A stretch of DNA of 64,000 bases from Candidatus Nanoarchaeia archaeon (lineage in GTDB: Archaea > Nanobdellota > Nanobdellia > Jingweiarchaeales > Jingweiarchaeaceae), in NCBI GenBank assembly GCA_038874075.1, contig JAVZDD010000001.1, positions 136,701 to 200,700 of the forward strand, written 5' to 3'. A program made the position numbers and the translations under genes. Below the pieces are notes generated by a model that worked only from the letters and a program-made list of their open reading frames with translations, was not told the DNA's origin and searched no databases. Shown one piece after another: positions 19,079 to 62,520 of this stretch (positions are counted from its first letter, which is position 1; every line of letters begins with the position of its first letter).

Positions 19079-19591
19079 ATGGATCTGTTTGTTGATAAGG
19101 AAAAAATAGTATGGATATTGTTTCTGTTTCTAATTTTTTTGAATAGTGTGGTAAAGCCAGAATTGGAGGAGCAAATAGAAAGAATGGAAATAATTAGGTT
19201 AAGTTTGGAGAAATCAGCTGAAGAAATGAGGCAAACAACAGAAAGTTTCGAGAAATCAATAAAGGAATTGCAAGAAACACAGAATAAAAGTGAAGATTGG
19301 ATTAGGTTGAGGAATTTGATGGAAATAACCAGTTCGTTGAATGTAAGTAGGTGTGAAGAAATCAAAGAAGAAGTTTTTCAGATACTTTGCGTTGGATACA
19401 TAGTGAATGAAACGCAAGATTACACAAAATGTTGGCAGATAAATGAGTCTTCAATTGTCTACAATAATAGTTTAAGGGATTGGTGTTTTTATTTTAGTGC
19501 GCTTGTTGAACTAAAAAATGCTTCACTATGTAATTATGTTAGTAATACTTCTCTTAGGCAAGAATGTTTTTTAAGATCAAGAAATATTTAA
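19079..19591 (+). CDS. Small secreted/membrane-anchored cysteine-rich protein (170 aa), unknown function
   Basis: N-terminal hydrophobic segment IVWILFLFLIFLNSVV, coiled-coil middle, eight Cys in the C-terminal half. Confidence 0.3.
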   Translation: MDLFVDKEKIVWILFLFLIFLNSVVKPELEEQIERMEIIRLSLEKSAEEMRQTTESFEKSIKELQETQNKSEDWIRLRNLMEITSSLNVSRCEEIKEEVFQILCVGYIVNETQDYTKCWQINESSIVYNNSLRDWCFYFSALVELKNASLCNYVSNTSLRQECFLRSRNI

Positions 19592-21036
19592 CCCTTGCAT
19601 ACACCAATCGGTACCAACCTAACAACAAGTTTTCCTATTCCTGCTCGGTTACTGACATTGGCTACTTCATCGATGTCTTTGTAAGCGCCTGGTGCCTCTT
19701 CAGCGATCACTTCCCAAGAAGCTGCTCTGACTAAAATTCCTCTGTTCTCAAGTTCCTTTGCAACGGTTTTGCCCCAATACCTCCTTATCGCCTCATTTCT
19801 TGACATTTCTCTACCTGCACCATGCGCGGTTGAATAGAAGGTTTTCTGGGCTTCTTTGTTGCCAACGAGCACATAACTTGCCGTTCCCATGCAGCCTGGT
19901 ATCAAAACTGGTTGGCCAACACTTTGATAAGCTGCTGGTATATCTGGGTGTCCTGGTGGAAACGCTCTTGTTGCCCCTTTCCTATGAACAAAACATTTTA
20001 TTCTTTTTCCATCAATTTCGTGTTCCTCAATCTTTGCAATGTTATGAGCGACATCATAAATTAATTTTAAACCCATTTTTTCAGCATCTTTTTTGAAGAT
20101 TTCCTGAAAACTTTCTCTTACCCAATGTAAAATCATCTGTCGATTACACCAAGCATAATTGGCTGCGGCGCACATTGCGCTAAAATAACTATCTGCCAAT
20201 TCGCTATTTGATGGTGCATAAACTAATTCCCTATCGGGAAGCTTCGAAATTACTTCGTGATATTTTCGCTCTATCTCTCTCAAGTAATCACTACATACTT
20301 GATGACCCAAACCTCTTGAACCTGTGTGGATCATCACAGTTATTTGATTCTCTTCTTCTATACCAAATGTTTTTGCAACATTTTGATCATATATCTTATC
20401 GACCCTCTGAATTTCGAGAAAATGATTACCTGCGCCTAAACTGCCAAGTTGTGGCATACCTCTCTGTTTTGCATTATTGGAAACTTTTTTGGGATCAGCT
20501 TCTTCCATACATCCCTCCTCTTCCATATGCTTAATGTCTTCTTCCCAACCATAACCATTCTCTACAGCCCACTTTGCTCCAAGTCTTAGTACCTCATCTA
20601 ATTCATTCAATGAATGGACTTTCACCTTTCCTTTGCTTCCAACTCCAGATGGCACATTTCTAAATATTTTCTCCAGTAATTCTTTTAACACTGGACGAAT
20701 ATCGTTCTCCTTAAAATTAGTCCTAATTAAGCGAACACCACAGTTTATATCGTATCCAACTCCACCAGGACTAATACAACCTTCTTCATAATCTATGGCC
20801 GCTACACCACCAATTGGAAAACCATAACCTTCATGCCCATCTGGTAGTGTAATTGAATACTTGTGGATTCCTGGTAAGCAAGCAACACCTGCTGCTTGAA
20901 TCAATGTTCTATCCTGCTTCATTTTTTCTAGTAGCTTTGGACTTGCAATCACTAGGCCAGGCACTTTCATTCCTGGAATTGTACTTTGTGGTATCTCCCA
21001 TTCAATGTCATTTATTTTTTTCAATTGAATATCCAT
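19588..21036 (-). CDS. rtcB: RNA-splicing ligase RtcB
   Basis: GVACLPGIHKYSITLPDGHEGYGFPIGGVAA...GGVGYDINCGVR...HTGSRGLGHQV, the RtcB hallmarks; 482 aa. Confidence 0.95.
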   Translation of the reverse strand: MDIQLKKINDIEWEIPQSTIPGMKVPGLVIASPKLLEKMKQDRTLIQAAGVACLPGIHKYSITLPDGHEGYGFPIGGVAAIDYEEGCISPGGVGYDINCGVRLIRTNFKENDIRPVLKELLEKIFRNVPSGVGSKGKVKVHSLNELDEVLRLGAKWAVENGYGWEEDIKHMEEEGCMEEADPKKVSNNAKQRGMPQLGSLGAGNHFLEIQRVDKIYDQNVAKTFGIEEENQITVMIHTGSRGLGHQVCSDYLREIERKYHEVISKLPDRELVYAPSNSELADSYFSAMCAAANYAWCNRQMILHWVRESFQEIFKKDAEKMGLKLIYDVAHNIAKIEEHEIDGKRIKCFVHRKGATRAFPPGHPDIPAAYQSVGQPVLIPGCMGTASYVLVGNKEAQKTFYSTAHGAGREMSRNEAIRRYWGKTVAKELENRGILVRAASWEVIAEEAPGAYKDIDEVANVSNRAGIGKLVVRLVPIGVCKG

Positions 21037-21097: not shown

Positions 21098-21886
21098 ATG
21101 AAAAGTATTGAGGGGAAACTAGTAAAAATTGAAGGCTTAGAGAACTTAATCGTTGTTGGAGACTTACATGGTGATTTTAATAGTTTTAAAAAAATTGTTG
21201 ATGAGTGGAGAAAACAAAAAGGTTACATCATTTTTCTTGGTGATTATGCAGACCGCGGTAGCAGTGGCTTAGAAATCATAGAAAGTCTGATGGAATTGAA
21301 GAAAGATAAGAACGTAATATTGCTCAAAGGGAATCATGAAGACTACGATAAGTATGGCCGACCTTCATTTTCACCATGTACTTTGATTCATGAAGTTGAG
21401 CAAAAAATGGGTGAATGGAAATCTTATTTTTCAAAAAAATTAGAACCATTCTTAAATGAATTGAACTTGGCTGCGATTGTAGATAAAATTTTATTTGTTC
21501 ATGGTGGTATAAGTTCAAGAATAAGAAGTATCGAAGATTTGAAGCATCCTAGTAAGCAAATAGAAGAAGATGTGATATGGAGTGATCCTAAAAGTGATTG
21601 TGGGAAAGGAGAATTCCCAAATTATAGAGGTGCTGGAGTCGAATTTGGTACAGACATTGTCCAAAAAGTGTTCAGTAAGTTGGGTGTGGATTTATTAATA
21701 AGAAGTCACCAACCCACGATTGCAAAGTATGGTCCATATTTTGCGTTAAATGACATGGTTATCATAATTTCCTCTACTGACATTTATGGGGGAATACCGC
21801 ATTACTTAAACATACCAGGAAACAAAATTGATGCAATTGCCAAAAATTCAAGAGAAATTTTGAAATACACAAAATTTTTACATTAA
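21098..21886 (+). CDS. PPP-family Ser/Thr phosphoprotein phosphatase / ApaH-like metallophosphoesterase
   Basis: GDLHGD, GDYADRG, GNHE motifs in canonical spacing. Confidence 0.8.
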   Translation: MKSIEGKLVKIEGLENLIVVGDLHGDFNSFKKIVDEWRKQKGYIIFLGDYADRGSSGLEIIESLMELKKDKNVILLKGNHEDYDKYGRPSFSPCTLIHEVEQKMGEWKSYFSKKLEPFLNELNLAAIVDKILFVHGGISSRIRSIEDLKHPSKQIEEDVIWSDPKSDCGKGEFPNYRGAGVEFGTDIVQKVFSKLGVDLLIRSHQPTIAKYGPYFALNDMVIIISSTDIYGGIPHYLNIPGNKIDAIAKNSREILKYTKFLH

Positions 21887-22308
21887 ATGTCTAAGACAAC
21901 ATGAACGAAGAAATTGGAATCTTTTTTTCCAATGTCCATATTAAAGTAAGTAACTGCTTTAATTGCTGTCCTTGGCTCATGTTTATTCTCATCAAATTTT
22001 TCACCCATTGCTCTTGCTTCCAGCTTCCACACACCAGTAGTTTTCCATATTTTTATCACCTTAACTTTACCAAAGACAAGATCTTCTGCGTCATGAAATA
22101 TTAGAAACTTCTCAAGAAAATCATAAAGTAGGCTCTTCATATCCTCACTTTGTATACTAATTTCTTTTGTTGTTTTCAATTCGACTTTCTTTGTATTTAC
22201 CATCACTTCTTGAAGTGCAATTGCAGCATTTTCGAATGCTTCCTCAATCGTTTTACCTTGGGCTTCGTATTCAACATCTGCTGTGTGTCTGAAAAATTTA
22301 ATTTTCAT
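21883..22308 (-). CDS. Archease (RtcB activator)
   Basis: MKIKFFRHTADVEYEAQGKTIEEAFENAAIAL, the archease N-terminal signature; 141 aa; near rtcB. Confidence 0.85.
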   Translation of the reverse strand: MKIKFFRHTADVEYEAQGKTIEEAFENAAIALQEVMVNTKKVELKTTKEISIQSEDMKSLLYDFLEKFLIFHDAEDLVFGKVKVIKIWKTTGVWKLEARAMGEKFDENKHEPRTAIKAVTYFNMDIGKKDSNFFVHVVLDI

Positions 22309-22748
22309 TTTCTCTTTGTTATTTTTAGGATGTAATTTTTAAACTCTTCTTTTTTCTCATCATCATTTAATCCAATTTGGGTTGCATATCTATATATTAT
22401 TTCTTCTATTCCATTTCCCTTAAAAACATTGTCTGTAGAAGCAATTGGCATATCATACAACAACGATGCAATTATTAAGCTCAGATCTGCAAGGTGCTTT
22501 TTTTTACGTTCTCTTATCTGCTTGTGATACTTATCATATACTTTCATTAAGAGTGTTTCAACAGAAGGTACTCCAGACTTCTTTGGTAATATTTTCAAAT
22601 TTTTCGGTATGCGTTTTTTTGGAATTTCGGCGTAGACCGTTTGTGTGGTGTAAATTTCTTTGTCTCTAAGAAAATCTGCCAATGTTGGATCTACTTTGTT
22701 AATATCATAAAATACGTTTGTATCAACCAAAACTGCATTTTTCTTCAT
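22305..22748 (-). CDS. PIN-domain protein (VapC-like), translationally coupled to archease
   Basis: AVLVDTNVF N-terminal PIN motif, conserved acidic residues (D9, E41, D88, D105); 4-nt overlap with the archease start. Confidence 0.65.
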   Translation of the reverse strand: MKKNAVLVDTNVFYDINKVDPTLADFLRDKEIYTTQTVYAEIPKKRIPKNLKILPKKSGVPSVETLLMKVYDKYHKQIRERKKKHLADLSLIIASLLYDMPIASTDNVFKGNGIEEIIYRYATQIGLNDDEKKEEFKNYILKITKRK

Positions 22749-26827: not shown

Positions 26828-26840
26828 TTCATCACCTTAA

Positions 26841-26944
26841 TGGGGCTGCAGGGATTTGAACCCTGGTTTTTGGGTTTCTTCATCTTTAAATCTGCGCTCC
26901 AGTCTGCTGGAGCCCAATGTCCTACCGTGCTAGACTACAGCCCC
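26841..26944 (-). tRNA. tRNA-Trp (anticodon CCA) with an about 31-nt intron at the canonical 37/38 position
   Basis: Reverse complement GGGGCUG..UUGGG-CUCCAG[CAGACUGGAGCGCAGAUUUAAAGAUGAAGAA]A-CCCAA..CAGGG-UUCAAAU-CCCUG-CAGCCCC-A. The intron 5-prime end (CUGGAG) pairs with the anticodon region (CUCCAG), as in BHB-type introns. Confidence 0.8.
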
Positions 26945-26961
26945 ATATAAAAATATTAAGC

Positions 26962-35890: not shown

Positions 35891-37101
35891 TTTTTAATTG
35901 CTAATTTTAATTCTTTTTTGTTTTTCATATAATCTTCGATCGGAATTCCATTGACTACTGCATCTATTGCCTGTCTCATTGCTTTTGCTCCAGAAAAAGT
36001 ACCATTTGGATGACCATGAACCCCTCCTCCAGCTTGTATAATAATATCTTTACCAAGTAATTCGATTAATTTTGGTATGGAACCTGGATGAAGTCCACCA
36101 GAGGCAACGGGGAATACAGATTTCAAACCAAAAAATTCTGATTTTAAAAACGAATTTATTTCTTTGGTTTCCTCTTCTCCACTTTCCATTTTCCCGATGT
36201 TTGCTGTGCCTGTGTGTATTTGATCTACACCAATGAGCCTTGATATTTTTGCGATTACTAACATTGAAATCCCGTGCTTTCCTTTTGTAAAAATTGCATG
36301 GCCTGCCCTGTGGGCGTGCAAAACTAATTTTAATTCATCATTCTCATTTCTTAGGGTCTGAAGCGCTGACCATCCTAATGTAATTATATCTACCATCACA
36401 TATTCATTACCAACTTCTCTAACAATCCTGGCCCTTCTCAGCATCTCCTTGACTTCAGCTGTAATATTTATCATGTAGATTTTCTTCTCTCCTGTTTCCT
36501 TCTCTGCTTTCTCCTTTGCATTGAATGTTTTTCTGAGTCTTTTTTCAAACCTATTAAACGAGAGTGAGGATAAATTCTCATCATCCTTAACGATATCAAT
36601 ACCGCCAGTCCAAGCTTCGTACGCTACTCTTGCATGTTCATTTTCGTTCAAACCAAGCTTTGGTTTTATTATCGTCCCGCATAATGGTCTATCATAAACT
36701 TTCAATAATTTTCTTATGCCATGAATTCCAAAGAGTGGACCTTTAAAAGATTTTACAATTTTTTCTGGAAAAATGATATTTTGAAGTTTCAAATTTTTGA
36801 TGATGTTCATTCCAAAGATGTTACCTGCGATACTTGAAAGAATTTGTGATATATTCCCTTCTTCAAATAATTCAATAGGATACGCGATTTTAACTTTATT
36901 TTTATCAATTTCAAAAACCTTTGCCCCCAATCTTTTTATCCTATATTTCATCGTCGCTACGTCAGTCCATGTGCCAATGCTTGACTCTGCAGCTATCTGT
37001 TCTGCAACCTTTTTAAATGGTATATCACGTGATGGTTCTACATAAAATTCTGTAATAAGGTCATTTTTTGATGGTTCATATTTTAAATTTATGTAACTCA
37101 C
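35875..37101 (-). CDS. rbcL: Ribulose-1,5-bisphosphate carboxylase large subunit, form III
   Basis: GGIDIVKDDENLSS (compare GGLDFTKDDE), IKPKLGLNENEHARVAYEAWTGG (carbamylated-Lys region), HAHRAGHA. Confidence 0.9.
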   Translation of the reverse strand: MSYINLKYEPSKNDLITEFYVEPSRDIPFKKVAEQIAAESSIGTWTDVATMKYRIKRLGAKVFEIDKNKVKIAYPIELFEEGNISQILSSIAGNIFGMNIIKNLKLQNIIFPEKIVKSFKGPLFGIHGIRKLLKVYDRPLCGTIIKPKLGLNENEHARVAYEAWTGGIDIVKDDENLSSLSFNRFEKRLRKTFNAKEKAEKETGEKKIYMINITAEVKEMLRRARIVREVGNEYVMVDIITLGWSALQTLRNENDELKLVLHAHRAGHAIFTKGKHGISMLVIAKISRLIGVDQIHTGTANIGKMESGEEETKEINSFLKSEFFGLKSVFPVASGGLHPGSIPKLIELLGKDIIIQAGGGVHGHPNGTFSGAKAMRQAIDAVVNGIPIEDYMKNKKELKLAIKKWGLK

Positions 37102-41248: not shown

Positions 41249-42259
41249 ATGATTGAAATAGATGGTTCAATTCTAGAAGGTGGAGGTCAAATAATTAGAA
41301 CTGCAATTGCTTTGTCCTGCATTACAAATAAACAAATACGTGTTTACAATATTAGGGCAAAAAGGGATAAACCTGGTTTGAGAGCACAACATTTACATGC
41401 GATAAAAGCTGCTTCTGAACTATGTAGTGCTGAAGTTGAAGGCTTAAAAATTGGTTCGATGGATATTAGATTTTTACCAGGTAAAATAAAAGGGAGAACA
41501 TTAAATATTGATATTGGCACTGCTGGCTCAATAAGCTTACTCCTCCAGTGTCTGATCCCAATATGTGTATTCGCGGATGACAAAGTAAGATTAAAGATAA
41601 GGGGAGGTACTGAGAACCTAAATGCGCCTTGTATTGATTATGTAAGATTTGTTATTTTACCTATGCTTGAGAAAATGGGTGTAAAGGTGAAAGTGAAATT
41701 ATTACGTAGGGGTTATTATCCGATGGGTGGTGGCTTCGTTGAGGTTTTCACTGAACCAGTGAATGATGGACAGCCACTAAATTTGGTTGACCAAGGAGAA
41801 CTGGTTGAAATTTTAGGAATATCAAATGCAAGTAATTACTTAAAAAAAGCCAATGTAGCTGAAAGACAGGAGAAAGCTGCAAGACAATTTCTGGTAAACA
41901 AATTTTTATGTCCTATTAAGATCAATGCAGAATATTGGAATTCGCTTTGCGCAGGATCAAGTATCACGCTTTGGGCAAAAACGAGCAGTGGTGCAATAAT
42001 TGGTGCTGATGCACTTGGAGAAAGAGGAAAAAGAAGCGAAGAAGTTGGGAAAGAAGTTGCAGAAAAATTGATAAGGGAAATAAAAAGTAACTCACCCGTT
42101 GATGTGCACTTGGCCGATAATTTGATATTATGGATCGCATTGTTTGGTGGTAAAATAAAAGTAAGTGAAATTTCACTGCACACAAAAACGAATATATTTA
42201 TATGTGAGGAAATACTTGGAAAAAAATTCAAGTTGGACGGGAATGTGATAGAATGTTAG
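41249..42259 (+). CDS. rtcA: RNA 3-prime-terminal phosphate cyclase RtcA
   Basis: MIEIDGSILEGGGQIIRTAIALSCITNKQIRVYNIRAKRDKPGLRAQHL, the RtcA N-terminus; 336 aa. Confidence 0.9.
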   Translation: MIEIDGSILEGGGQIIRTAIALSCITNKQIRVYNIRAKRDKPGLRAQHLHAIKAASELCSAEVEGLKIGSMDIRFLPGKIKGRTLNIDIGTAGSISLLLQCLIPICVFADDKVRLKIRGGTENLNAPCIDYVRFVILPMLEKMGVKVKVKLLRRGYYPMGGGFVEVFTEPVNDGQPLNLVDQGELVEILGISNASNYLKKANVAERQEKAARQFLVNKFLCPIKINAEYWNSLCAGSSITLWAKTSSGAIIGADALGERGKRSEEVGKEVAEKLIREIKSNSPVDVHLADNLILWIALFGGKIKVSEISLHTKTNIFICEEILGKKFKLDGNVIEC

Positions 42260-44619: not shown

Positions 44620-44871
44620 TTGATGGAATACGATATTGAATTAAAAAAAATTAAAAATGAAATTAAAAAAGCGAAAAGGATTTTGATACAGCTTCCAGAA
44701 GGAATTAGGAATAATGCATGTAAAATTGCTTGTGAAATTGAAAAAGAGAGAAAAATCGTATTTATATGGGCTGGTAGTTGCTTTGGCGCATGTGACATAC
44801 CAAATATACCTAAGAAGTTTGGAATTGACTTATTAATACATTTTGGACATAGTAAATTAAGGGGTGGGAGT
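44620..44871 (+). pseudogene. dph2: Remnant of diphthamide synthase Dph2 (N-terminal about 85 codons only), reading in-frame into the rnhB start region
   Basis: MMEYDIELKKIKNEIKKAKRILIQLPEGIRNNACKIACEIEKERKIVFIWAGSCFGACDIPNIPKKFGIDLLIHFGHSKL matches the Dph1/Dph2 N-terminal region (hLQFPEGL ... GACD ... LIHFGHS), but a full Dph2 is about 340 aa. The frame runs directly into the RNase HII N-terminus. Confidence 0.5.
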
Positions 44872-45580
44872 TTGGTTCTGAAAAAGAAAGAAACGATTTG
44901 CGGCATTGATGAGGCTGGTAGAAAGTTAAACAATGTTTAACTTACCAAAAGGCCCTCTGATCGGAAGTCTGTACATTTGTGGAATTTTAGTAGAAAAAGA
45001 TCGAATTAAAGAGTTAAAAAATATTGGTGTAAAGGATTCAAAAGAACTAAAAAAGAATGAAAGAGAAGAATTGGAATCAAAAATTAAGAAAATTGCAAAG
45101 GATTTTAAGATAGTCAAAATTACGCCAAAAGAAATAGACGAAAGGGCTTCTGTTGGTATGAACTTAAATCATTTAGAAGCAATAAAAATGGCTGAAATTA
45201 TAAATACGTTGAAACCGGACGTGGCAATCATTGATTGTCCATCACATAACACAAATGCGTTCAAGAAATTTTTGGAAAAATATCTTGAGCATAAATGTAA
45301 ACTAAAAGTCGAAAATTATGCAGATGAAAGTTATGTTACTGTTGGAGCTGCTTCAATTCTAGCAAAAGTGGAAAGAGACCGGGAGATTGAAAAAATCAGT
45401 AAAGAGTTAGGGATAGAATTGTACAATGGTTATCCGAATGATGAAAAAGCATTAGAATTGGTAAAAAATCTTGAGAAAATTCCTGGTGCTAGGAAATACA
45501 TAAGAAGCAGTTGGTACACATACAAAAGAATAGAAGAAGAAAAAAATTTAAGGAAACAAAAGAAGATTCTGGATTTCTAA
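44872..45580 (+). CDS. rnhB: Ribonuclease HII with reading frame interrupted after ...ICGIDEAGR by a 28-nt insertion (44923-44950). May be split, intron-containing or a pseudogene.
   Basis: Frame 1 ends ETICGIDEAGR-KLNNV*. Frame 2 restarts MFNLPK-GPLIGSLYICGILVEKDRIKELKNIGVKDSKEL...VTVGAASILAKVERDREIE (RNase HII core). Deleting exactly 44923..44950 yields the canonical GIDEAGRGPLIGSL in frame. Confidence 0.6.
44917..44950 (+). other. 28-nt helix-bulge-helix-loop element inserted in rnhB. It supplies a TAA stop for the upstream part and an ATG for the downstream part.
   Basis: GGUAG-AAA-GUUAAAC-AAU-GUUUAAC-UUACC: 5-bp helix with one G-U, 3-nt bulge, 7-bp helix, 3-nt loop; perfect inverted repeat GTTAAAC aat GTTTAAC at 44925-44941. 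Confidence 0.55.
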
Positions 45581-45643: not shown

Positions 45644-46855
45644 ATGAAAATAAAATTTGCACATATCGGGGATACACATATTGGTGCAAGTAATTTCAAG
45701 CTAAGGGAGAGGGAAGAGGATTTTGAAAGGGCATTTGAAATAGCTGTAGACAAAATAATAGAAGAAAAAGTAGACTTTGTAATACATAGTGGAGATCTAT
45801 TTGATAGGGGGAGACCTTCACTCAAAACTTTTTTATTTTGTTTGGAACAATTAAAGCGATTAAAAAAAGCGAATATCCCAGTTTTTATCGTTCCAGGGTC
45901 CCATGACATCAGCACTGAAGGCACATCAATCTCGATCTTTGAAAGAGTTGATTTGATCAAGGATGTTTCTTCAAGGGAATTCTTTGAAATGGGTGAGGAA
46001 AAGAGTAATTTCAGTGGAATGATGTTTGAAATCAAAGGGAACAAAGTTTTCATCTGCGGTTTGCCAGGAAGAAGAGCAAGGATTAATGAAATCTATGAAA
46101 AATTTTATGTGGATTTACCAAAGGATGCATACAAGATATTTGTGTTTCACCATATTATTTCTGATATCCCAAATTCTGTGCCATTCAGTGATATCGCAAC
46201 TTCTCAGTTACCTAAGGGTTTTGATTATTATGCTGGTGGTCATTGGCATTCAAGATTTGAAATGAAATATAACAGTCATTTAATTGTCTATCCTGGATCA
46301 CTTGAATATTGCGATGTAAGAGAAATGGAATCAGATGCTGAAAAGGGTTTTTATATCGTGGAAGTTGATAATGGAAAAACAAGCTTAAAATGGATTAAAG
46401 TGAAAGTAAGAAAGATTATGGTGAGGAAATTAAACTGCAACAATTTAAGCGCTCATGAAGCGACTGAAAATTGTTTAAAATTGATAAGAGAAGAGGCAAA
46501 AAACCTAGAAAATGGCGTTCTCATACTAAAACTTGAAGGTAGATTAAAGAGTGGTAGCAGAGGAGAAATAGATAGGACAATAATAGAAAAAGTATCAAAG
46601 GAATTTGGTGTATTGATAACACAGGTTTATGTATCTGACTTACTTGACCCCACTTCAGCAATCTCTATTGACATTAGATCGAAAAGTTTAGAACAAATAG
46701 AACAAGAATATCTCGAAAGGCAGAAATATGATACGAAGATGATAAAAGTTGCAAGGGAACTCATTTCAATCCTTGGGCAAGAACTTGGTGGAGATGAAAT
46801 AGAGAGAGAAGTAAATAAGGCCTGCGAAATAATAGAAAAGGAGATACTTCAATGA
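45644..46855 (+). CDS. mre11: DNA double-strand break repair nuclease Mre11
   Basis: MKIKFAHIGDTHIG, VIHSGDLFDRGRPS, VPGSHD, GGHWHS phosphoesterase motifs; followed with a 4-nt overlap by rad50. Confidence 0.9.
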   Translation: MKIKFAHIGDTHIGASNFKLREREEDFERAFEIAVDKIIEEKVDFVIHSGDLFDRGRPSLKTFLFCLEQLKRLKKANIPVFIVPGSHDISTEGTSISIFERVDLIKDVSSREFFEMGEEKSNFSGMMFEIKGNKVFICGLPGRRARINEIYEKFYVDLPKDAYKIFVFHHIISDIPNSVPFSDIATSQLPKGFDYYAGGHWHSRFEMKYNSHLIVYPGSLEYCDVREMESDAEKGFYIVEVDNGKTSLKWIKVKVRKIMVRKLNCNNLSAHEATENCLKLIREEAKNLENGVLILKLEGRLKSGSRGEIDRTIIEKVSKEFGVLITQVYVSDLLDPTSAISIDIRSKSLEQIEQEYLERQKYDTKMIKVARELISILGQELGGDEIEREVNKACEIIEKEILQ

Positions 46856-62367: not shown

Positions 62368-62520
62368 GCGGGGGGAAGCGGGGGTAACTTAACAATCGTT
62401 AAGTCCCCAAAGCCAAGCGGTCTAAGGCGATAGGCTCAAGAGCAGGTATCAGCTGAATGAAATGATGTTGTGATACCTATTGGCTTAGTGCCTTCGAGGG
62501 TTCGAATCCCTCCCCCCGCA
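62368..62520 (+). tRNA. tRNA-Leu (anticodon CAA) with a 34-nt canonical 37/38 intron (62441-62474) and an additional ~24-nt insertion after the acceptor 5-prime strand; GCGGGGG acceptor strand duplicated
   Basis: 3-prime half GAGGG-UUCGAAU-CCCUC-CCCCCGC-A. Anticodon arm AUAGG-CUCAAG[intron]A-CCUAU. D-arm GCC-AAGCGGUCUAA-GGC. Leu-type variable arm GGCUUAGUGCC. 5-prime acceptor GCGGGGG occurs at 62368 and 62378. Between 62385 and 62410 lies a GGGG-UA-ACUUAAC-AAUC-GUUAAGU-CCCC helix-bulge-helix-loop. Confidence 0.65.

Follow-up and report, generated by a model that had tools for sequence, protein, structure and literature searches.

A putative bulge-helix-bulge intron interrupts the catalytic motif of the RNase HII gene in a DPANN archaeon

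Results

The rnhB locus and its interrupted reading frame

We analysed a 64,000-nucleotide stretch of AT-rich DNA (GC content 33.7%; hereafter the window) from Candidatus Jingweiarchaeum tengchongense, a DPANN archaeon from hot springs and a relative of the Parvarchaeales, in which the RNase HII gene (rnhB) carries 28 extra nucleotides (nt) that break its reading frame. Coordinates are those of the window, and features lie on the forward strand unless marked (−). The genes at the locus are ordered as a Dph2-like mini open reading frame (ORF), rnhB, mre11 and rad50. An ORF of 106 aa (44620-44940) ends in ...ICGIDEAGRKLNNV and is followed, in overlap and in another frame, by an ORF of 215 aa (44933-45580) that begins MFNLPKGPLIGS... 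and represents the annotated form of rnhB. The first frame reads ...GGC ATT GAT GAG GCT GGT AGA and then AAG TTA AAC AAT GTT TAA, giving a protein that runs ...KKKETICGIDEAGR and then KLNNV before a stop, five codons after ...ICGIDEAGR. The second frame picks up the gene as ...GGC CCT CTG ATC GGA and encodes GPLIGSLYICG.... Deletion of 28 nt yields the continuous sequence LVLKKKETICGIDEAGRGPLIGSLYICG, whereby ...GIDEAGRGPLIGS... is regained in one frame; since A44922 and A44950 are the same base, excision of 44922-44949 and of 44923-44950 gives the same product. The 215-aa ORF is identical to four NCBI proteins from metagenome-assembled genomes (MAGs) labelled J. tengchongense or 'Candidatus Parvarchaeota archaeon', and the paper describing J. 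tengchongense (PMC10134863) does not mention introns.

The Dph2-like mini-ORF (83 aa, 44623-44871) matches positions 1-57 only of the 302-position profile PF01866, and no stop separates it from the first part of rnhB, with which it is in frame. The closest relative with available DNA (L006, the Logan assembly of SRR11061215; 74% aa and 80% nt identity, same gene order) likewise keeps a mini-Dph2 ORF beside rnhB, the ORFs being 80-83 aa long. In that relative the counterpart (138-380) closes at a TGA that precedes rnhB by four bases, and this stop has been lost in J. tengchongense. An 11-nt Shine-Dalgarno-like sequence, AGGGGTGGGAG (44860-44870), lies directly upstream of a TTG start codon for rnhB at 44872. 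This TTG is conserved in the relative, which has GAGGTGA at the equivalent site before its own TTG. Thus, the 106-aa N-terminal peptide that an earlier note on this DNA had proposed is mostly a separate Dph2-like ORF that by chance is in frame, and rnhB has its own conserved start.

Exon 1 of the gene so defined spans 44872-44921 and comprises the TTG start, the codons (M)VLKKKETICGIDEAG and the AG of an Arg codon; exon 2 (44950-45580) supplies the last base of that codon and continues with GPLIGSLY... to a TAA stop. The predicted spliced product of 226 aa matches the Pfam RNase_HII profile (PF01351) over positions 1-198/199 with 147 bits, compared with positions 8-198 and 126 bits for the annotated 215-aa ORF. 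It aligned without gaps across the junction with nine full-length homologues, and also, again with no gap at the junction, with Pyrococcus RNase HII (PDB 1uax; E 1.9e-38). In an 11-row alignment that includes the truncated row P0001, D13 and E14 were nearly invariant, and D112 and D142 were invariant. Only after excision does the gene encode a full-length RNase HII domain, in which the N-terminal DE motif is joined by both catalytic Asp residues further downstream. The ORFs, the Pfam matches and the alignment of homologues therefore bear out the earlier observation that an RNase HII gene is interrupted within GIDEAGRGP and that removal of 28 nt repairs its frame.

We considered whether the insert could be an assembly or sequencing artefact. 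The DNA at the rnhB junction is identical in the Logan assembly of SRR27170999 and in NCBI assembly GCA_025920765.1; the latter differs from the window elsewhere (two mismatches and one gap) and was therefore built independently. The locus is present on up to eight contigs, the four MAG protein records share the same truncated product, and GCA_025920735.1 matches the window at 100% in the adjacent regions compared, up to window position 36678. Given that independent assemblies share the junction, an assembly error, one of the explanations raised earlier, is excluded for practical purposes, and an artefact of either kind has a negligible chance of accounting for the insert. In GCA_025920765.1, mre11 beside rnhB (window 45644-46855) is called as two ORFs of 211 and 191 aa, with two mismatches and one gap relative to the window; this split call reflects strain variation or else an error of assembly.

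The insert and its flanks form a predicted bulge-helix-bulge motif

Folding of the insert together with its flanks indicated a canonical archaeal bulge-helix-bulge (BHB) motif of 3-4-3 layout, with Watson-Crick pairs throughout. Read 5′ to 3′, the transcript is laid out as GGC, TGGT, the bulge (AGA), AAGTTAAAC-AAT-GTTTAACTT, ACCA, the bulge (AAA) and G GCC. The 5′ strand of the central 4-bp helix, TGGT, lies in exon 1 (44916-44919) and pairs with its complement ACCA within the insert (44944-44947); an explicit motif scan gave the pairs T16-A47, G17-C46, G18-C45 and T19-A44, numbered here and below by the last two digits of the position. The 5′ bulge AGA occupies 44920-44922 and the 3′ bulge AAA occupies 44948-44950. 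Between the two strands of the central helix, positions 44923-44943 fold into an inner hairpin of nine Watson-Crick bp, AAGTTAAAC/GTTTAACTT, with an AAT loop, whose G25-C41 pair had a probability of 0.83-1.0 at 37-75 °C. In the strict 3-4-3 register the outer helix consists of the single pair C44915-G44951; when the 3′ bulge is read as four nucleotides (AAAG), GGC at 44913-44915 pairs with GCC at 44952-44954 to give three G-C bp, with pair probabilities of 0.54-0.98 for C15-G52 and 0.50-0.87 for G14-C53. The constrained fold energies were −18.8 kcal/mol with 3-nt bulges and −21.5 kcal/mol with the 4-nt 3′ bulge. The fold suggested in the earlier note (a helix of five, a bulge of three, a helix of seven and a loop of three) is thereby revised to a helix of four, a bulge of three, a helix of nine and a loop of three, with AAA as the second bulge on the 3′ strand.

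Archaeal BHB motifs are cleaved between the second and third nucleotides of each bulge (PMC2738675). When applied to the rnhB element, this published rule predicts cuts at G44921/A44922 and A44949/A44950 and removes exactly the 28 nt required (44922-44949, equivalent to 44923-44950), so that AG and A are joined into an Arg codon, with GGC CCT continuing the frame. The putative intron contains the in-frame TAA (44938-44940) that closes the upstream frame as well as the spurious ATG (44933) used by gene callers.

The arrangement of the element also bears on two ways in which an active enzyme might arise without splicing. In the first, RNase HII would be naturally split, a short N-terminal peptide (or the extended Dph2-like ORF) assembling with the 215-aa ORF initiated at ATG 44933. 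That ORF is indeed annotated by gene callers and in four GenBank records, and split genes occur in DPANN archaea such as Nanoarchaeum. However, the split would disrupt the catalytic loop within its invariant DEAGRGP motif; the N-terminal piece, once the mainly Dph2-like part of the 106-aa ORF is set aside, is a 22-aa peptide with one β-strand and only two catalytic carboxylates out of four; the start codon of the 215-aa ORF, ATG 44933, is part of the hairpin loop and has no Shine-Dalgarno-like sequence; Pfam positions 1-7 are missing from that ORF; and the perfect BHB of the spacer would be left unexplained. The proposal of a split gene, raised in the earlier note, is thus weakened, and we consider it very unlikely. 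In the second, ribosomes would bypass the hairpin as in phage T4 gene 60, taking off at AAG (44923-25) and landing on AAA (44948-50). Matching Lys codons do flank the stop-containing hairpin, and a hop of 25 nt would regain the downstream frame. Nevertheless, bypass would place an extra Lys in the invariant GRGP motif (GRKGP), the stop stands five codons past the take-off site and not adjacent to it, and the BHB geometry would again have no explanation; moreover, we know of no translational bypass in archaea. This mechanism appears even less probable than a split enzyme.

Strict BHB motifs are rare in the window and lie where excision restores a gene

We scanned both strands of the window for strict BHB motifs. 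To qualify, a site had to combine a central helix of 4 bp with an inner helix of 7 bp or more, a loop no longer than 8 nt and an outer helix of 1 bp or more; the intron could not exceed 60 nt, and all pairs had to be Watson-Crick. Two loci were observed against 0.15 expected from 40 Markov simulations, namely the rnhB element and a 25-nt element in a tRNA-Leu gene (62386-62410), and at both of them excision restores a gene. By comparison, loose scans that allowed G-U pairs and loops of any size were uninformative: 112 motifs were found in the window and 94-141 in Markov-shuffled copies. These scans were run with inner-helix minima of 3-7 bp, introns of up to 200 nt, and with and without an ORF-joining test, which did not help because neighbouring genes were spuriously joined. 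Only the strict, compact Watson-Crick definition discriminates in this AT-rich DNA. Extending the strict scan by 8-10 kb per side gave one match, an AT-only intergenic hairpin (L035 18540-18572, TAAA[TAT]...TTTA[AAG]) that is probably a chance or terminator-like element.

The tRNA-Leu(CAA) gene (62378-62520) served as a positive control. It contains two introns and was missed by both ARAGORN and Rfam in the raw sequence. Its 25-nt element, inserted at a non-canonical position after U8, shows a central GGGG/CCCC helix flanked by the bulges GTA and AAA; its inner hairpin is AT-rich and has 7 bp, and its outer helix has 2 bp. Application of the published cut rule to this element left GCGGGGG-U8-A9-GCC..., after which ARAGORN called a normal tRNA-Leu(CAA) with a canonical intron of 34 nt (62441-62474). 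Since the rule yields a normal tRNA-Leu, the organism demonstrably relies on both the BHB architecture and the rule. Furthermore, the tRNA-Leu element is itself AT-rich, and its run of G allows the register to slip; neither property therefore counts against the rnhB element. A second GCGGGGG, the 5′ strand of the acceptor stem, occurs at 62368-62374, 10 nt upstream of this tRNA gene.

The earlier note had also pointed to a resemblance between the two elements. In architecture it is real, the same BHB layout and the same cut rule serving both. In sequence it did not stand out: the local alignment score of 18 fell between the 90th (16) and 99th (19) percentiles of a background of 60-nt windows of the same DNA, and common descent or transposition of the two introns was dropped as the score was not above background.

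Distribution of the insert among relatives

The rnhB gene of the closest relative is intact, and the DNA alignment with it contains a single clean 28-nt gap, GCTGGTAG^AGG. The insert was found neither in the other members of the 90% cluster that were compared nor in the next closest proteins, and all 23 rnhB loci (at most 50% identity) examined in GTDB representative genomes, a set that does not include the organism's own genome, were uninterrupted. The simplest history suggested by these comparisons is a recent, lineage-specific gain of the intron in the J. tengchongense lineage. The hairpin GTTAAAC-AAT-GTTTAAC, for which the earlier note had proposed a search for further copies, had none besides that of rnhB in the window at up to three mismatches; across the 64 kb and its flanks we found no multiple copies of the kind that mark a dispersed palindromic repeat or an insertion resembling a miniature inverted-repeat transposable element. 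Five exact 21-mer matches to the hairpin in JGI metagenomes share a different flank, lack BHB flanks and have 44% GC, and they look unrelated.

A recent pseudogene, disabled by a 28-nt hairpin that may be a stray BHB element, would show the same distribution. In such a case splicing would be absent or would occur mostly in an alternative 26-nt register, and the cell would survive without RNase HII or by means of another enzyme. The absence of the insert from all relatives compared, the equal stability of the 26-nt register (described below) and the lost stop of the upstream Dph2-like gene, a second change at the locus, all fit this explanation, and DPANN genomes readily lose genes. Several observations speak against it. 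No further stop or frameshift occurs in the 226 codons, and strong constraint remains: relative to the closest relative (74% aa identity), the proportions of nonsynonymous (pN) and synonymous (pS) differences were 0.14 and 0.78 (saturated) for rnhB, the same pattern as for mre11 (pN 0.17, pS 0.74). The constraint and intactness seen in these comparisons rule out an old pseudogene, and only a very recent inactivation, as in the pseudogene option of the earlier note, would fit them.

For a very recent pseudogene, the geometry of the insert is the main difficulty. The probability that a random insert forms a Watson-Crick 3-4-3 BHB with cuts at its own boundaries is about 1e-6, the ACCA complement included, and the strict motif is expected only 0.15 times per 64 kb. 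The hairpin does not look like a repeat element, being present in a single copy in the window and, as a 21-mer in JGI data, in an unrelated context. An organism that splices a tRNA intron of identical shape would also be expected to cut the rnhB element. A fresh pseudogene must thus either take the BHB geometry as coincidence or regard the insert as an intron by origin, and in the latter case it should be cut as well. We regard a fresh pseudogene as the main alternative, albeit an unlikely one.

Splicing machinery and other features of the window

Genes for the ligation machinery are present in the window: the RNA ligase RtcB (482 aa, PF01139) is encoded at 19588-21036 (−) and its cofactor Archease (PF01951) at 21883-22308 (−). 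A weak PIN-like ORF (22305-22748) adjoins Archease, and the RNA 3′-terminal phosphate cyclase RtcA (PF01137/PF05189) is encoded at 41249-42259. A tRNA-Trp(CCA) gene (26840-26945 (−)) is interrupted at the canonical position by an intron of 31 nt; the minimum-energy RNAfold structure of the anticodon arm has no canonical BHB, CTCCAG pairing with CTGGAG of the intron. Elsewhere in the window, a form III-type RuBisCO large subunit lies beside a glycosyl transferase family 3 protein (PF02885/PF00591/PF07831; 34394-37101 (−)) that is probably AMP phosphorylase. RuBisCO and AMP phosphorylase form a nucleotide-salvage pair common in DPANN archaea.

Discussion

Our analysis favours the reading that the 28 nt in rnhB are a recently gained BHB mRNA intron within coding sequence, spliced by the tRNA splicing endonuclease EndA and by RtcB, to which we assign a probability of roughly 0.7. 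The cuts predicted by the rule coincide with the only excision that restores the frame, and the rule, applied unchanged to the tRNA-Leu gene of the window, gives back a functional tRNA. The canonical 3-4-3 layout, the fitting cut sites and the tRNA-Leu control thus support the leading explanation of the earlier note. In the proposed mechanism, exon TGGT (44916-19) would pair with intron ACCA (44944-47) so that AGA and AAA bulge out, the 9-bp hairpin and the short G-C helix closing the two ends. EndA would then cut at the two predicted sites, and RtcB together with Archease would join the exon halves and release the 28-nt intron, possibly as a circle. The join would rebuild the Arg codon AG/A and shift the frame by one, leading from GIDEAGR into GPLIGSLY, and the spliced mRNA would encode RNase HII in full (226 aa), including each of the four catalytic carboxylates. 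On unspliced mRNA, translation would end at the TAA inside the intron.

Several points weigh against this reading. Splicing is predicted from the DNA sequence, and no spliced or intron-less protein at 100% identity was found in a protein collection of 5.8 billion clusters. The lack of the insert in all relatives compared is a pattern also expected of a fresh disabling insertion, and the available copies are 99.7-100% identical, hence without strain variation or covariation. The strict register leaves an outer helix of only 1 bp, three G-C bp being reached only with the 4-nt 3′ bulge. Moreover, the helix can slip by one position owing to runs of A: a second 3-4-3 register, with central GGTA/TACC and the bulges GAA and AAA, would excise 26 nt (44923-44948) and lead to a premature stop (...GRKAL-stop). 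This register is isoenergetic with the productive one (−19.2 versus −18.8 kcal/mol), and the ensemble slightly favours it, the probability of A20-U43 being 0.42-0.63 and that of A23-U43 0.28-0.43 at 37-75 °C. The enzyme may prefer one of the two registers; the 5′ bulge of the productive register, AG/A, is the same as in our model of the canonical tRNA-Leu intron, a relaxed BHB that was derived by hand and differs from the minimum-energy RNAfold structure of that anticodon arm. Finally, a search for EndA (PF01974/PF02778) that covered the window, its unannotated ORFs and about 10 kb on either side gave no match. The three tRNA introns in the window (two in tRNA-Leu and one in tRNA-Trp) nevertheless point to an active splicing endonuclease in the organism, and the canonical 3-4-3 BHB is, to our knowledge, a substrate common to all EndA types. 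Non-canonical introns are cut only by the (αβ)2 and ε2 forms of EndA, with recent hints of the same for a loop-bearing α4 form in DPANN, across which EndA architectures are diverse (PMC5829648).

Given that the Dph2-like ORF runs into rnhB, we also considered whether the putative intron might act as a frame-switching control element caught soon after its gain, with unspliced and spliced RNA encoding different proteins. Translation of unspliced RNA would yield a Dph2-like protein of 105 aa terminating in the intron, and spliced RNA would give RNase HII or, unless translation begins only at the TTG, a 309-aa fusion of the Dph2 N-terminal part with RNase HII. We looked among longer RNase HII homologues for such fusions, and none resembled one: the extra length is C-terminal in the three longest (279-290 aa), and a 257-aa homologue has an N-terminal leader in which no Dph2 motifs were evident by eye. 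We regard this control function as doubtful. If it were true, splicing efficiency, or the choice between the 28- and 26-nt registers, would set the RNase HII level by the logic of XBP1/HAC1, and the locus would record a tRNA-type intron inserted de novo into a DPANN mRNA, which would be relevant to the spread of protein-spliced introns into coding genes.

Besides the intron in the 5′ untranslated region (UTR) of HVO_1309, the only archaeal mRNA BHB intron reported as of a 2020 paper is that of crenarchaeal cbf5 (PMC7714728). A 2023 review agrees on these two cases and expects more, and a 2025 structural paper still cites the cbf5 work alone. If spliced as predicted, rnhB would be the second protein family with a BHB intron in its coding sequence, and would add DPANN as a third archaeal lineage with an mRNA BHB intron, in this instance with an unusually clean motif. 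The close intron-less orthologue would make it a dated intron gain in a protein-coding gene. In four GenBank records RNase HII is currently truncated, with two of its catalytic residues missing; where BHB introns are ignored, inferences about the completeness and metabolism of such genomes can be wrong. Scanning for strict BHB motifs together with frame repair offers a workable route to further cases.

The closest known parallel is cbf5 of the Crenarchaeota (Desulfurococcales and Sulfolobales; Watanabe 2002, Yokobori 2009, PMC2738675), whose coding sequence holds BHB introns of 16-44 nt, compared with 28 nt in rnhB. In cbf5, as predicted for rnhB, the tRNA splicing endonuclease cuts between the second and third bulge nucleotides, the exons are joined, and removal is needed for the full-length protein; a pattern of gain and loss across lineages is likewise shared. 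In contrast, cbf5 encodes a pseudouridine synthase in TACK archaea and rnhB an RNase HII in a DPANN archaeon; relaxed BHBs have been described for cbf5, whereas the rnhB motif is predicted to be canonical, 3-4-3 and Watson-Crick. Furthermore, the cbf5 intron is common to whole orders and proven by cDNA, whereas the putative rnhB intron is confined to one species and predicted from DNA sequence. The cbf5/TruB-PUA homologue of J. tengchongense itself is one uninterrupted gene of 324 aa (L035 13882-14856), about 1.3-2.3 kb past the left edge of the window.

HVO_1309 of Haloferax volcanii (Schwarz 2020, PMC7714728; PMC10485636) resembles the proposed rnhB case in presenting an EndA substrate in mRNA, outside tRNA and rRNA, and shows that BHB processing of mRNA extends beyond the Crenarchaeota; unlike that of rnhB, its intron lies in the 5′ UTR and leaves the reading frame unaffected. 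Within the window, the tRNA-Leu intron (25 nt, against 28 nt) offers a structural match, with a 4-bp central helix, two 3-nt bulges of which the 3′ one is AAA, a compact AT-rich hairpin of 7-9 bp and a cut rule common to both, and with a short G-C outer helix that in the strict rnhB register is reduced to 1 bp. Introns at non-canonical tRNA positions, as they occur in archaea with a broad-specificity EndA, differ from that of rnhB in that the host RNA is a tRNA and not a translated mRNA. Outside archaea, the metazoan system of IRE1 and RtcB acting on XBP1/HAC1 provides an analogy, with an intron that is likewise very short (26 nt in XBP1) and bounded by stem-loops, splicing independent of the spliceosome, joining by RtcB and a switch of frame that alters the protein produced. 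There, however, the nuclease is IRE1 acting on paired stem-loops, not EndA on a BHB, and the system is eukaryotic and regulated by stress.

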